This document shows, piece by piece, positions 24,994 to 28,761 of a stretch of DNA of 37,659 nucleotides. The notes beneath the pieces were generated by a model that saw only the letters and a program-made list of their open reading frames with translations, was not told where the DNA came from and ran no database searches. Source of the stretch: Candidatus Lindowbacteria bacterium RIFCSPLOWO2_12_FULL_62_27 (GTDB taxonomy: Bacteria; Lindowbacteria; 2-12-FULL-62-27); NCBI GenBank assembly GCA_001784175.1, contig MFPR01000028.1, forward strand, positions 225,955 through 263,613, written 5' to 3'. The position numbers were made by a program, and so were the translations under genes. How positions within the stretch are numbered: position 1 is the stretch's first letter; every line of letters begins with the position of its first letter.

Positions 24994-27363
24994 ATGAAAC
25001 TCCTCCCCTTGGGTGGGGGACGAGCGTTGCTCGGATGCGTTTTGTCCATTCTGACCTTCCTGTCACCCGCCGCCGCCGTCGAAGTGTACCGCGTCGACGT
25101 GATCGATTTTCAGGGCAACCGCGTGCACACCGCCAATGAGCTTCGCCTGTCGGTCCAGCTCTCCGAGGGCGTCACGCTCTCGAAGGAAACGCTGAAGACC
25201 GCGGCCGGCGACGACGTCCACCGGCTCTACGCCACCGGATTCTTCTCCGACATCCGCGCCGACATCCAGTTCCGCGAGGACCGCACGGCCTTCGTGACCT
25301 TCCTCGTGGTCGAACAGCCCCAGATATCCGACGTCGTCTTCTCGGGACTCAAAAAACTGGATGAAAAATCCCTCCGCGACGTCCTCCCGACCAGTTTTTC
25401 AGCCGGAAATTTTCTGAACGAGTATCTGCTCAAGCGCGCCGAAAGCGCGATCCTGAACCGCTACTACGAGGACGGCTACTATTTCGCCAAAGTCACGGTC
25501 GTGAAGGAGCCCGTGGAGGCCGACCGCGTGCGCGTGCGGTTTGATGTGGAGGAGGGCGACAAGCTCAAGGTCGGCCGGTTCGAGGTCGAGTTCGACCGCC
25601 GGATGCCGCCGTTTGAGGGGTGGCGGCGAAAGATGCAGATCAAGTGGCATTTCTCGACCGGCAAGGGTGCGATATACTCCAGGGAACTCCTGAACAACGA
25701 CGTGAAACGCTTTGTCGACGTCCTCAAGGAAAAGGGGTACCTCCTGGCCGCGATCGAACCCCGGACGGAAATCGACTCCAAGCGGCGCCGCATGAACGTG
25801 CGGCTCATCGTCCATGTCGGCCCCCGCATGCGCGTCGGGCACATCTCGTTCGAAGGCAACAAGGTCCTGCCCGAATCGGACCTGCGGCCGAAACTGGCGT
25901 TCGCCTCCGGCGAGTTTTTCACCCTCAAGAAATTCTCGCAGTCGATGGAGAGCATCCGCAAAGCCTACGAGAAAATCGGATATCTCGAAGCCGAGGTCCT
26001 CAACCGGCCCACCATCCTCGAGGAGGCAGGGCGCGTCGATTTCACCATCGACATCCGCGAGGGCCAGCTCATCTATGTCGAGCAGATCCTCGTGGAGGGC
26101 CTGACAAAAACCCGGTCCAAAATCGCACGGCGGGAAATCGTGCAGAAAGAAGGCGAACGGTACGACGGCGAGCTGGTGGACCTGTCCAAGCGAAACCTGA
26201 ACAACACGGGATATTTTGAAAACGTCATCGTGTTGACGGAAAAAGGATCCAAGCCCAACGCCCGCGTCCTCATCTTCCGGCTCGCCGAGGGACGCACCGG
26301 CACGCTGCAGATCGGCATGGGATTTTCGTCCCTCAGCGGGTTTGTCGGATTTTCCTCCATCTCCAAACGCAATTTCGACCTGTTCGACCATCCGTTCAAG
26401 AAGGACAACAAGAGCCCCTATTTCACCGGCGCCGGCCAGAACATCTCCACGTCGGTCGAGGTCGGCAGCAAGCGCACGAATTTCGACGTCTCATGGACCA
26501 ACCCGTGGATCAACGACCGCTTGAAATCCGAACGGCCCAGCCCCCGCTTCCCGACTTCCCTCACCACGCGTGTCTTTCGGTCGGGACAGGATTACGACCA
26601 GTACCACGAAAACCGAAACGGCGTGAACTTCCAGCTCGGCCGGCGATTCGGCAATTTCCTCTCGGGCTTCATGGGCTACCGCTGGGAGGGCGTGCGGCTT
26701 TCGGACATTCAAACCGGCGCGCCCGCGTCGATCCTCCTCCTCGGCAACCGGGACGATGCGGTCTCGGCCTTTTCCTTCGGCAGCACCTACGACCACACCG
26801 ACAATGTCTTTTGGCCGACGCGGGGCGTGCGGATCGCGTTCGAAGACGAAATTGCCGGCATCGGCGGGAACGTCGAGTTCAACCGCCCCTCCCTGGACCT
26901 GCGCGCGTTCCGGTCGGGCGGCTGGAAAAACGTGGTCGCCTTCCGGATGAATTTCGTCACCGTCTCCAATCCATTCAGCAGCGACGTCCCGCCCGACTAT
27001 GAGCAATTCTATCTCGGCGGGCCCAACAGCGTCCGGGGATACGACGACCGCGAGATCAACGTCCGCAGCGTCGCCGGCCAGAAGGAGGGCGGCCGCACCG
27101 CCACCTACTACAACCTCGAGTACCGCATCCCCGTCCTCGAAAATACCTTCAGCATCCTCCTCTTCCACGACGCCGGCATGGTCAGCGAAAGCCCCTACGC
27201 GCTGAACGGCGACGTCAAAACGAGCGCCGGCCTGGGCCTCCGCGTCCAGAGCCCCATGGGACCCATCCGCCTCGATTTCGGCTACCGCTTCAGCGACACG
27301 TACCGGGGCGCCAACGACAAGGGCCAGTTCGAACCGCACTTCTCGTTCGGACAGCAGTTTTGA
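24994..27363 (+). CDS. bamA: Outer membrane protein assembly factor BamA
   Basis: Signal peptide, POTRA repeats (LYATGFFSD, GYYFAKV, LNNTGYFENV), barrel with FYLGGPNSVRGY, SAGLGLRVQSPMGPIRLDFGY, terminal FSFGQQF. Confidence 0.93.
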   Translation: MKLLPLGGGRALLGCVLSILTFLSPAAAVEVYRVDVIDFQGNRVHTANELRLSVQLSEGVTLSKETLKTAAGDDVHRLYATGFFSDIRADIQFREDRTAFVTFLVVEQPQISDVVFSGLKKLDEKSLRDVLPTSFSAGNFLNEYLLKRAESAILNRYYEDGYYFAKVTVVKEPVEADRVRVRFDVEEGDKLKVGRFEVEFDRRMPPFEGWRRKMQIKWHFSTGKGAIYSRELLNNDVKRFVDVLKEKGYLLAAIEPRTEIDSKRRRMNVRLIVHVGPRMRVGHISFEGNKVLPESDLRPKLAFASGEFFTLKKFSQSMESIRKAYEKIGYLEAEVLNRPTILEEAGRVDFTIDIREGQLIYVEQILVEGLTKTRSKIARREIVQKEGERYDGELVDLSKRNLNNTGYFENVIVLTEKGSKPNARVLIFRLAEGRTGTLQIGMGFSSLSGFVGFSSISKRNFDLFDHPFKKDNKSPYFTGAGQNISTSVEVGSKRTNFDVSWTNPWINDRLKSERPSPRFPTSLTTRVFRSGQDYDQYHENRNGVNFQLGRRFGNFLSGFMGYRWEGVRLSDIQTGAPASILLLGNRDDAVSAFSFGSTYDHTDNVFWPTRGVRIAFEDEIAGIGGNVEFNRPSLDLRAFRSGGWKNVVAFRMNFVTVSNPFSSDVPPDYEQFYLGGPNSVRGYDDREINVRSVAGQKEGGRTATYYNLEYRIPVLENTFSILLFHDAGMVSESPYALNGDVKTSAGLGLRVQSPMGPIRLDFGYRFSDTYRGANDKGQFEPHFSFGQQF

Positions 27364-27380
27364 AGAAGAGAATATGAGAA

Positions 27381-27422
27381 GGGTTCGAGGGTTCGAGGGT
27401 AAAATCGGCGTGACAGTTCAAG
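27381..27422 (+). repeat. Left outer inverted repeat: (GGGTTCGA)2-GGGTAAAA...TTCAAG
   Basis: Octamers at 27381-27388 and 27389-27396. Reverse complement of the 27938-27985 block. Confidence 0.85.
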
Positions 27423-27900
27423 TAACCCTTTCCTCTCGCGAAGGCGCAAAGGTCGCGAAGAATGGATGAGAACGAGATAGGGAGAATAGTCGTAGATGCG
27501 GCCATCTGCGTCCATCGTGAACTGGGCCCGGGTCTTCTTGAAACCGTGTATGAGGTTGTATTGGGAAGAGAACTCGAAGATCGCGGGTTGAAAGTCGAGA
27601 GACAAGTTGCTGTTACCATTGAGTGCCGAGGAATCCGGTTTGACGAGGGATTCCGAGCCGACATCATCGTTCAGCGCAAAGTCATCTTGGAGCTGAAGTC
27701 AGTGGTTAAGGTGACAGATGTTCACAAGAAACAACTGTTGACGTACCTGAAATTGTCCGGGCTACGCCTCGGATTTCTTCTCAACTTCGGTGAGGCTTTG
27801 ATGAAAGACGGTATCACCCGTACCGTGAATAGACTGCCGGAAGGCTGATGATCCGCTTGGCGTGCTTTGCGTCTTGGCGAGAGAATAGGCTGAATAGTTA
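27423..27900 (+). mobile_element. Inverted-repeat-bounded GxxExxY cassette (putative mobile unit)
   Basis: 27434-27460 and 27856-27882 form a 27-nt inverted repeat (22/27 by hand) tightly bracketing the gene. Putative termini TAAC (27423-27426) and GTTA (27897-27900). Lower GC than the flanks. Confidence 0.55.
27462..27848 (+). CDS. GxxExxY protein (PD-(D/E)xK nuclease fold)
   Basis: VHRELGPGLLETVYE (GxxExxY), FRADIIV..ILELKSV, QLLTYLKL..GFLLNFG. Confidence 0.93.
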   Translation: MDENEIGRIVVDAAICVHRELGPGLLETVYEVVLGRELEDRGLKVERQVAVTIECRGIRFDEGFRADIIVQRKVILELKSVVKVTDVHKKQLLTYLKLSGLRLGFLLNFGEALMKDGITRTVNRLPEG

Positions 27901-27937
27901 GTGCGCCGTGAGAATGTTGAAGGAGTTGATTCGCTCT

Positions 27938-27985
27938 CTTGAAGCTTGACAGGTTTTACCCTCGAACCCTTGAACCCTCGAACCC
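27938..27985 (-). repeat. Right outer inverted repeat: CTTGAA...TTTTACCC-(TYGAACCC)3
   Basis: TCGAACCC 27962-27969, TTGAACCC 27970-27977, TCGAACCC 27978-27985. Complementary to 27381-27422. Confidence 0.85.
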
Positions 27986-28697
27986 TCCTAAACTCGCCTA
28001 TGTGTTGTGCGCCGGGATCGGCAAGCGGCTCCGGCCGCTGACGATCCGGTATCCCAAGGCGCTCCTGCCGGTGGGGGGGCGGCCGATGGTGTTTCACGTG
28101 CTGGACGCGCTCTGTGCGGTGGGCGTCCGGCGGTTTCTGGTCAACCTCCATGCGCATCCGGCCGTCCTGCGGAGGGAACTTCGGGCGTACGGCCGCAGGC
28201 ACAGGGTCCGGTTCATGTTTCTATATGAAAAGAAACTTCTGGACACGGGTGGGGCGCTCCGAAACGCGGCCGAACACCTGATCGAGCCGTTCTGGCTCGT
28301 CAACTGCGATTTTTTTCCGGCCGGATTCTCGTTCGCGGCGATGGCGCGGGCGCATGCCGCAAAGAAGGCGATCGTTACGCTGGCCATCCGGCCCATGTCC
28401 CGGGGCGAGCCTTTCACTCCGGTCGGCCTCGACCGGCGCGGCCGGATCATCCGGGTGTCGGGCGTCTTCGGCGCCGGCGGAAGGGACCACGTTTTCCTGG
28501 GCGTCCACCGGATCGACCCGGCGGCGCTCGCGCATCTGTCCTTCAAGAAGATTTTCCCGATTTTCAGCGGTCTCTACCGAAATCTTTTCCAAACCGGTCG
28601 CTCCATCCACGCCTTCGTCTGCCGTCCGGCGTTTACATTCGATCTGGGAACGCTCGAAGGCTATTACTCGGCGAATTTCGAATTCATCCCCCCTTGA
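27939..28697 (+). CDS. Sugar-phosphate nucleotidyltransferase (NTP_transferase family, MurU/GMPP-like); start uncertain
   Basis: VLCAGIGKRLRPLT..PKALLPVGGRP, VNLH, E..LLDTGGAL, VNCD, DLGTLEGY. Confidence 0.85.
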   Translation: MKLDRFYPRTLEPSNPPKLAYVLCAGIGKRLRPLTIRYPKALLPVGGRPMVFHVLDALCAVGVRRFLVNLHAHPAVLRRELRAYGRRHRVRFMFLYEKKLLDTGGALRNAAEHLIEPFWLVNCDFFPAGFSFAAMARAHAAKKAIVTLAIRPMSRGEPFTPVGLDRRGRIIRVSGVFGAGGRDHVFLGVHRIDPAALAHLSFKKIFPIFSGLYRNLFQTGRSIHAFVCRPAFTFDLGTLEGYYSANFEFIPP

Positions 28698-28720
28698 AAA
28701 GGGGGGAACGAGGGGGGTTT
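28688..28720. repeat. REP-like G/C-run hairpin
   Basis: CCCCCCTT-GAA-AAGGGGGG followed by AACGA-GGGGGG-TTT. It supplies the stop codon of the nucleotidyltransferase. Confidence 0.55.
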
Positions 28721-28761
28721 CCGTCTTTCACCGATCTCTGACCGAATTTCATTCAGCCGTC

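Follow-up and report, generated by a model that had tools for sequence, protein, structure and literature searches.

A GxxExxY nuclease gene within two nested layers of periodic inverted repeats at the bamA junction of a Candidatus Lindowbacteria genome: a probable hairpin cassette of the rRNA intervening-sequence type

Architecture of the locus

The window, the whole stretch of DNA analysed here, comprises 37,659 nucleotides (nt) of Candidatus Lindowbacteria bacterium RIFCSPLOWO2_12_FULL_62_27 (contig MFPR01000028.1). At positions 27,381 to 27,985 it carries a small gene for a GxxExxY protein, a predicted nuclease of the PD-(D/E)xK fold, enclosed in two nested pairs of inverted repeats (IRs) built of short tandem units. 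The genes exbD, a tonB-like gene and bamA lie upstream of this block, and a sugar-phosphate nucleotidyltransferase-type gene lies downstream. The features of the locus are as follows; the repeats have no strand assigned.

24994 to 27363, plus strand: bamA, the upstream host gene, with profile matches to five POTRA stretches and the Omp85 barrel
27377 to 27404: outer left arm, GGGTTCGA octamers, ending with GGGTAAAA; this arm type also surrounds the PF05635 genes of loci L107 and L157
27405 to 27426: left spacer from outer to inner arm; its TTCAAG pairs with 27938-27943 in the predicted fold, and its final letters are GTAAC
27427 to 27460: inner left arm, CCTTTCCTCT followed by three CGC(G/A)AAG units
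27462 to 27848, plus strand: GxxExxY protein gene, 128 amino acids (aa), PD-(D/E)xK fold, with E27, D67, E77 and K79 conserved
27856 to 27889: inner right arm, CTTGGCG / CTTTGCG units followed by AGAGAATAGG, the partner of the inner left arm
27890 to 27901: GCTGAATAGTTA motif, a possible relic of a third layer of ends
27902 to 27949, plus strand: relic of a PF05635 (four-helix-bundle) gene, its final 15 codons, CAVRMLKELIRSLEA plus TGA
27954 to 27989: outer right arm, ACCCT(C/T)GA octamers, the partner of the outer left arm
28002 to 28697, plus strand: nucleotidyltransferase (NTP_transferase, profile match) gene, the downstream host gene

The inner IR pairs 27427-27460 with 27856-27889 (34 nt, 79% complementary), its left arm stopping 1 nt before the ATG at 27462 and its right arm beginning 7 nt past the TGA at 27846-27848. 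The outer IR, made of GGGTTCGA / TCGAACCC octamers, pairs 27380-27404 with 27954-27978 (25 nt, 96%) or, in an alternative register shifted by one octamer, 27377-27400 with 27966-27989 (24 nt, 92%). The inner and outer IRs score 33 and 45, versus means of 12.1 (maximum 26) and 14.7 (maximum 32) in 1000 dinucleotide shuffles of the flanks, none of which reached either score. Therefore, the two nested IRs described in the initial annotation of this DNA are real. The low-GC block that it placed between bamA and the next gene was likewise recovered, with a GC content of 0.51 in 27381-27985 versus 0.61 genome-wide. No transposase ORF (open reading frame) is present inside it, as the initial annotation had noted. 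It is extremely improbable that the repeats are products of chance, or ordinary terminator hairpins or simple repeats around an unrelated small gene: a scan of 27200-28200 returned one promoter-like and one terminator-like site, neither above shuffles, whereas the scores of both IRs lie beyond all shuffles and the arm motif recurs at 73 of the 79 related loci described below.

The inner arms as a signature of the GxxExxY family

A scan of one genome per species revealed 428 GxxExxY relatives, of which the best 79 loci (68-79% protein identity) were used, and a flank IR was counted when it exceeded the 95th percentile of 267 shifted controls. Such an IR was found in 73 of the 79 close-relative loci, with a median score of 36 versus 16 in the controls. 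The left arm of the close relatives reads (T)CTC(T/G)CGCAAAG-R-CGCAAAG-RN-CGCAAAG right before the ATG, and the complement is located a few bases past the stop codon. These cassettes sit at unrelated sites, and the record titles of the 79 loci name many phyla. A diverse sample of 24 PF13366 loci from 61 genomes was also analysed; three had flanks too short for use, and of the 21 left, 16 had a flank IR above the threshold. The units at the diverse loci are CACAGAG, CACAAAG, CGCAAAG, CGCAGAT, CACGGAG, CACGAAG, CAGGAAG and CACAAAAG, and C-R-C-R-R-A-G is the unit skeleton common to GxxExxY arms, down to 34-42% protein identity. The genome of the window itself has three PF13366 and five PF05635 matches. 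Periodic IRs enclose two of its three GxxExxY genes, the copy on contig C20 having CGCAAAG-type units, whereas a complete hairpin made of CACGAAGGAG units lies after the third gene. The initial annotation had made its proposal depend on whether other GxxExxY genes share such IRs, and the counts from this genome, the close relatives and the diverse loci indicate that most of them do.

The two arms of a locus were compared in 43 of 80 loci, after loci with an ORF shorter than 330 nt or a proximal arm score below 24 had been dropped. The left and right arms of one locus fit each other with a mean score of 39.5, compared with 24.8 ± 1.2 when the pairs are permuted (2000 permutations, maximum 29.1), and in 14 of the 43 loci the own right arm is the single best partner of the left arm. 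Within the unit, positions 2 (G/A) and 5 (A/G) covary across both arms. The arm type also follows the protein tree: the AAG/GAG label requires 3 changes, versus a minimum of 7 in 300 label shuffles, and the CAC/CGC label 4 changes, versus a minimum of 5. The 43 rows of the tree represent 18 phylum groups which are intermixed, with Gemmatimonadota, Calditrichota and Planctomycetota rows within branch lengths of 0.04-0.1. As judged from these sequences, arms and gene are inherited together and have spread horizontally across phyla.

Several loci of the family show further features. In L020 (G037:C13), from a distant genome, at 279-1041 and 1362-1545, arms 88-93% identical to the inner left arm of the window stand ahead of a two-gene module, together with more arm copies and a GxxExxY gene; the module appears toxin-antitoxin-like from its ORFs. 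In L040, L042 and L006, the cassettes directly adjoin tRNA genes (Rfam tRNA, 31-70 bits).

The initial annotation had suggested TAAC...GTTA ends for the cassette. The right end holds in so far as GCTGAATAGTTA, located directly after the inner right arm, also forms the two halves of the outer IR around the GxxExxY cassette in L065; on the left, however, the partner is reduced here to GTAAC. GCTGAATAGTTA was not taken as a general cassette end, as only 8 matches (at most one mismatch) occur in 648 kb of loci, some from duplicate fetches, where about 3 are expected by chance. In the genome of the window, 9 of the 12 GCTGAATAGTTA matches are termini of GGGAGAGG-type palindromic repeats, an unrelated family (e.g. 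C28:215788, C33:29722 and C41:12304).

The GxxExxY protein

The ORF 27462-27848 matches PF13366 (PDDEXK_3) with 132.3 bits (cut-off 22) and TIGR04256 (GxxExxY) with 132.5 bits (cut-off 35). It matches no Pfam-type profile other than PF13366, and it is not an HUH/Y1 transposase. Comparison of 37 sequences revealed that H18, G24, E27, Y30, D67, K79, L106 and N108 are invariant and that E77 is conserved in at least 90%. The conservation of E27, D67, E77 and K79 thus provides a complete PD-(D/E)xK set. No relative of known structure was found in the Protein Data Bank by sequence at E ≤ 0.01. The AlphaFold (AF2) model has a predicted local distance difference test score (pLDDT) of 95 and a predicted template modelling score (pTM) of 0.88. 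Alignment of this model by VIA-align gave 3ijm, a restriction-endonuclease-like structure, with a Z-score of 8.3 and a root-mean-square deviation of 3.4 over 100 aligned residues, followed by BpuSI (Z-score 8.1), Cas4 SSO0001 (7.6), Hjc (6.6) and splicing endonucleases (5.3-5.8). The top rows of a Foldseek search with the model are all PD-(D/E)xK-fold nucleases, at E-values of 3e-3 and weaker. These middling scores of a predicted model show the fold but not the substrate, and they agree with the PD-(D/E)xK fold given in the initial annotation. The entry for PF13366 in a 2012 survey of the superfamily reads 'Unknown' and 'multiple transfers' (PMC3424549).

The ORF is intact in 75 of the 79 close-relative loci. 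Among the 25 closest pairs listed, the ratio of nonsynonymous to synonymous substitution rates (dN/dS) is 0.024-0.147 in 23, dS being undefined in the other 2; by this measure the protein is under strong purifying selection. The copies in the three same-family genomes share only 34-36% identity with the window protein, whereas copies from other phyla reach 67-77%. PF13366 matches occur in 18 of 61 genomes in a patchy manner, and some copies are fragmentary or contain stop codons.

The outer layer is a gutted four-helix-bundle cassette

The outer arms are those of another cassette type. Within the genome of the window, the motif GGGTTCGAGGGT is unique to this locus. Scanning of metagenome contigs for GGGTTCRAGGGTTCRAGGGT revealed at least 120 stretches, and 80 loci were examined. 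In 27 of the 80, an inverted partner (score of at least 30) lies within 1.4 kb, and most of these are gene-less hairpins with loops of 30-250 nt. GGGTTCRA arrays were found around intact PF05635 genes in L107 (115.5 bits) and L157 (136.2 bits), and around internally deleted PF05635 genes in L171 and L167. A GxxExxY match was found by tblastn in none of the 80 loci.

Right before the outer right arm at this locus, translation of 27902-27949 gives CAVRMLKELIRSLEA and a stop codon. The peptide matches the L107 protein (131 residues) at 114-125 (RLLKALIRSLQ) and the L157 protein (132 residues) at 115-126 (RMLKALIKPLE), close to their C-termini, and shuffled peptides scored as high in 0 of 5000 cases for L107 and 1 of 5000 for L157. 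The arm type of PF05635 cassettes together with the relic C-terminus therefore identifies the outer IR as the shell of a four-helix-bundle cassette, with the GxxExxY cassette in its loop. The earlier idea of an insertion into an older repeat-bounded element is thus supported and becomes specific: the older element is a PF05635 cassette, of whose gene 15 codons are left. The association of 7-8-nt periodic IRs with four-helix-bundle genes, mentioned in the initial annotation, holds for 3 of the 5 PF05635 matches in this genome, with the units AGAAGAC, CAATGAAC and TATTTTC. At C4:215045-219392, at least five AGAAGAC-heptamer arms in alternating orientation surround several ORFs, among them two PF05635 genes of which one contains an in-frame TGA.

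Nesting is not confined to the window. Of 42 GxxExxY loci, 14 have a further IR layer that scores beyond the 95th percentile of 74 controls (maximum 26). Strong second layers of unrelated sequence are present in L049 (score 59), L065 (50), the window (45) and L025 (39); that of L076 (26) is borderline, and in the remaining nested loci the match falls on columns of masked repeat units. Short spacers of some 20-65 nt, judged by eye, separate the layers, as would be expected after insertion into an existing hairpin loop. In the metagenome contig L123, at about 1290-1400, a gene-less hairpin of CACAAAG units (GxxExxY-type arms) lies just within GGGTTCGR arms; this seems to be a second case of both cassette types nested.

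The insertion site in relatives

A DNA search of 40 other genomes located the bamA-nucleotidyltransferase junction in all three genomes of the same family (G001, G002 and G003). The GxxExxY gene is absent from the junction in all three, and these are sites without the gene of the kind that the initial annotation had proposed to look for. The gap between the two genes is 638 nt in the window, compared with 8 nt in G002, 45 nt in G003 and 110 nt in G001. In G002, the TTG start of the nucleotidyltransferase gene overlaps the TGA of bamA. The G003 junction contains an AATCCGC heptamer array and a small hairpin, and the G001 junction (L018, about 300-420) contains a self-complementary hairpin of ATCATGAT octamers. 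Therefore, one and the same junction is occupied by a different, unrelated periodic-repeat element in each of three genomes and by none in the fourth. The ATCATGAT hairpin belongs to a gene-less family dispersed over many contigs of the window's genome (60 matches, both strands of the self-complementary motif being counted). The second GxxExxY gene, on contig C20, is also missing from the matching place in G001, where about 1.5 kb is replaced by 128 nt. The GxxExxY gene at the bamA junction is an insertion and a presence/absence polymorphism.

The distribution of the gene bears on the alternative that the cassette is a domesticated module which is no longer mobile here and is kept for host benefit, either as a defence or stress nuclease or as an RNA-processing site uncoupling bamA from the downstream gene. 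The strong purifying selection on the protein and the intact catalytic residues fit such a role, as does the finding that the cassette is identical in the contigs of four metagenome runs. We nevertheless consider this alternative improbable, since the gene is absent at the junction in every same-family genome, patchy and partly decayed among the 61 genomes, closest to proteins of other phyla rather than to copies of the same family, and found in cassettes at unrelated sites.

The repeats also touch the reading frames of their neighbours. The nucleotidyltransferase has a conserved N-terminus, LAYVLCAG, and the sole in-frame start that keeps it is the TTG at 27939, located within the relic and the right arm. 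If this start is used, the outer right arm would be translated as MKLDRFYPRTLEPSNPPK... (27939-28004). At the G003 junction (L010, about 2560-2640), a GTG start would likewise translate the AATCCGC heptamer array, and an AATCCGC/AATCCAC array with the same unit lies in frame within a long ORF of the window's genome (C28:273800-273845), about 460 nt upstream of the third GxxExxY gene. Further downstream in the window, a GC-rich palindromic repeat (CCCCCCTTGAAAAGGGGGG...) occupies 28683-28737 between the nucleotidyltransferase gene and a fumarase-like gene, with 7 more copies of 86-94% identity on other contigs.

Periodic inverted arrays across the genome

A tandem-repeat census of the genome yielded 851 arrays of period 6-10, of which 46 lie no more than 1.5 kb from a partner in inverted orientation; some few such pairs are GC-rich and due to chance. 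About 14 gene-less hairpins are made of CACGAAG/CACGAAC-type units, one of them directly after the third GxxExxY gene, and gene-less hairpins with eight other 7-nt units are also present. A link of the CACGAAG-type hairpins to the GxxExxY cassette is possible.

Three inverted arrays enclose proteins of about 320-330 aa that resemble the REP-associated tyrosine transposases (RAYTs; REP, repetitive extragenic palindrome), namely at C1:98304-99310, C36:19638-20769 and C44:3769-4876. Their arrays consist of the 8-9-nt units TTGACTTT, GGTCAGGGT and TGGGCTTGG. One of the three proteins is a REP-associated tyrosine transposase by profile (NF047646, 94 bits, cut-off 80), the only one above the cut-off among 10 RAYT-like matches in the genome. 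Small genes framed by such arrays are thus a common feature of this genome, and the RAYTs among them represent a known mobile system.

Proposed mechanism and alternative readings

Based on these results, we propose that the locus is probably a two-layer hairpin cassette of the rRNA intervening-sequence (IVS) type, located within an mRNA operon. In the older layer, a PF05635 cassette with GGGTTCGA octamer arms would have inserted between bamA and the nucleotidyltransferase gene, whose stop and start codons overlap in one relative, G002. The gene of this cassette would later have been gutted, leaving the arms and the final 15 codons. In a second step, the GxxExxY cassette, with its own C-R-C-R-R-A-G arms hugging the start and stop codons, would have taken the loop of the older layer. 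In a transcript reading through from bamA, the arms would pair as one long interrupted stem with the insert looped out, bringing the bamA stop beside the nucleotidyltransferase start. The predicted minimum free energy fold of 27364-28001 places both layers in one interrupted stem (-235.3 kcal/mol, z = -4.6 against 20 shuffles). The base of the predicted stem runs from the first base past the bamA stop to just before the GTG at 28002, and the host RNA on both sides would therefore be joined as if the insert were not there. The genome encodes RNase III (195 bits). By analogy with the 23S IVSs, there is an even chance that this enzyme cuts the stem, which would free the nuclease mRNA and make the insertion tolerable. 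More tentatively, spread at the DNA level may proceed via the hairpin-forming arms, favour the loops of existing hairpins and need the PD-(D/E)xK nuclease.

Several observations weigh against this proposal. Unit position 4 is Watson-Crick paired in just 53% of 115 units, the mismatches often being purine-purine, while positions 1, 3 and 7 are invariant. In 13 pairs of loci, the arms differ by a p-distance of 0.03-0.35 compared with a dS of 0.2-1.5, and thus change less than synonymous sites; on this comparison purifying selection acts on the arm sequence as well. Divergence of the far flanks was discarded as a neutral yardstick, since free-end alignments of these unrelated sequences were too short to be reliable. 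Together with the family-wide conservation of the unit, the slow change of the arms is more than pairing needs and points to sequence-specific recognition. The GxxExxY gene is co-oriented with its upstream neighbour in 50 of 73 cases and with its downstream neighbour in 42 of 71 (about 60-68%), although these orientations are crude, being longest-ORF calls in GC-rich DNA. A strict dependence on read-through would predict a different pattern. Across 43 arm pairs, G.U-type pairs outnumber A.C-type pairs on the sense strand by 53 to 32, an excess which is modest and comes from loci that are not independent; it may slightly favour folding of the sense strand. Among the 80 examined GGGTTCRA-array loci, tblastn found a PF05635-type match in just 4. 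Comparison of the occupied site with the gene-free site of G002 shows no target-site duplication, although a short duplication could have been erased, as the flanks are only about 75% identical. The initial annotation had likewise reported no clear target duplication. The inversion or excision that it proposed to look for did not appear: no cassette-free, inverted or excised variant occurs in the contigs of the four DNA runs, which match the stretch without joints, indels or letter differences. The assembly may derive from two of the four runs, and small extra contigs cover the octamer arm only and come from other DNA.

The conservation of the arms fits an alternative in which the locus is a REPtron-like DNA element. 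The arms would then be arrays of protein-binding or cleavage sites on DNA, as single-stranded hairpin or cruciform, and RNA pairing would be incidental; the GxxExxY nuclease would recognise the arms and mobilise its own cassette and gene-less hairpins, as RAYTs do with REPINs. The skeleton kept at low protein identity, the free position 4 beside the invariant positions, the slow change of the arms, the gene-less CACGAAG/CACGAAC-type hairpins, the RAYT-like genes in analogous arrays and the neighbours that are not strictly co-directional are all in line with it. However, four-helix-bundle cassettes share the architecture without a nuclease, and their units are very diverse; the three-unit CGC-type array is confined to two GxxExxY genes of this genome and the outer octamer motif to the window locus. 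Neither a target duplication nor, in the four runs, an excision or inversion variant was seen, and the literature searched contained no biochemistry of any GxxExxY family member. We regard this alternative as rather unlikely as the primary explanation, while noting that it is compatible with the two-layer cassette proposed above, as the RNase III step and a REPtron-like mobility step, in which the nuclease acts on its own arms, do not conflict.

A broader and still more doubtful proposal joins these elements. GxxExxY nucleases and C-R-C-R-R-A-G hairpin arrays might form a mobile-element class of their own, the PD-(D/E)xK counterpart of RAYT/REPIN. Periodic units presented as DNA hairpins or cruciforms would be recognised by the nuclease, which would insert its cassette and gene-less copies into the loops of existing hairpins, such as other cassettes, terminators and the tips of rRNA helices. 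The paired arms would render the insert topologically invisible to host RNA, and the family would span phyla, with the classical 23S IVSs as those of its members that reside in rRNA. Nuclease cassettes and those with four-helix-bundle genes would be competitors for hairpins, each overwriting those of the other, as at this locus.

Comparison with known systems and significance

The closest architectural parallel is the ORF-bearing IVS of 23S rRNA, as described for helix 45 of Coxiella burnetii and for Leptospira and Xanthomonas, in which a small ORF for S23p (PF05635) lies within stem-forming terminal IRs. According to the Coxiella account, the terminal IRs form a 28-bp stem which is cut mid-stem by RNase III, and the 5' arm consists of AGAAGA and tandem GACAGAT heptamers directly before the S23p start (PMC4990558). 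The arrangement of tandem heptamers immediately before a start codon is shared with the inner left arm of the window, and the arm unit AGAAGAC (= GACAGAA) of PF05635 genes in the window's genome nearly equals the Coxiella heptamer. The PF05635 family itself is represented here by the 15-codon relic of the outer layer, while the live ORF is GxxExxY. The same account reports S23p to be decaying and probably untranslated, and regards the IVS as selfish (PMC4990558); in contrast, the live cargo here is a PD-(D/E)xK nuclease that appears to be under strong purifying selection. Unlike the 23S IVSs, the window locus is located between two protein-coding genes, and no rRNA match was found in 15 related loci including the window (L009). 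It also has two nested layers, and RNase III cleavage would apply here by analogy.

The locus also resembles the REPIN-RAYT systems or REPtrons as they are outlined in two reports, with a single small gene between inverted hairpin-forming repeats and gene-less hairpins elsewhere in the genome (PMC3116915, PMC3337134). However, the protein here has the PD-(D/E)xK fold, where those systems are described with an HUH/Y1 transposase, and the repeats are tandem 7-9-nt units, with few same-unit copies in the genome, instead of one REP palindrome. RAYT-like genes of this genome likewise lie within inverted periodic arrays. We know of no transposase partner of GxxExxY cassettes.

Palindromic repeats resembling miniature inverted-repeat transposable elements, such as Correia, ERIC, RPE and BoxC, are short IR-bounded elements between or inside genes. 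The gene-less hairpins at the bamA junction of G001 and G003 are similar to them, whereas the GxxExxY cassettes carry a conserved, selected gene. Free-standing homing endonuclease genes are small selfish nuclease genes at gene junctions which are transferred horizontally and are not known to lie within periodic inverted arrays. The GxxExxY cassette shares with them the insertion at junctions and the horizontal transfer, but it has the inverted arrays and no defined cognate target site.

In the literature searched, which left subscription journals mostly outside, we found neither GxxExxY genes in periodic IRs nor IVS-type cassettes outside rRNA described. The locus probably belongs to a widespread, apparently unpublished class of hairpin-bounded selfish gene cassettes built like rRNA IVSs. 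Three findings are new here: the outer layer is identified as a gutted PF05635 cassette, GxxExxY arms share the C-R-C-R-R-A-G unit across the family, and one junction has been occupied repeatedly and independently. Many bacterial genomes have annotated GxxExxY and '23S rRNA-intervening sequence' proteins, neither of which has a known function. If both are cargo of one class of junction-inserting hairpin cassettes, this would give a general answer to the long-standing question of where rRNA IVSs come from and why they carry ORFs. It would open transposase-free or nuclease-driven mobility to direct assay, and annotation could recognise cassette inserts, including arms translated within host proteins. 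To this the window adds a layered 'fossil record', in which one cassette type lies inside the gutted shell of another, at a junction that is filled differently in three relatives.

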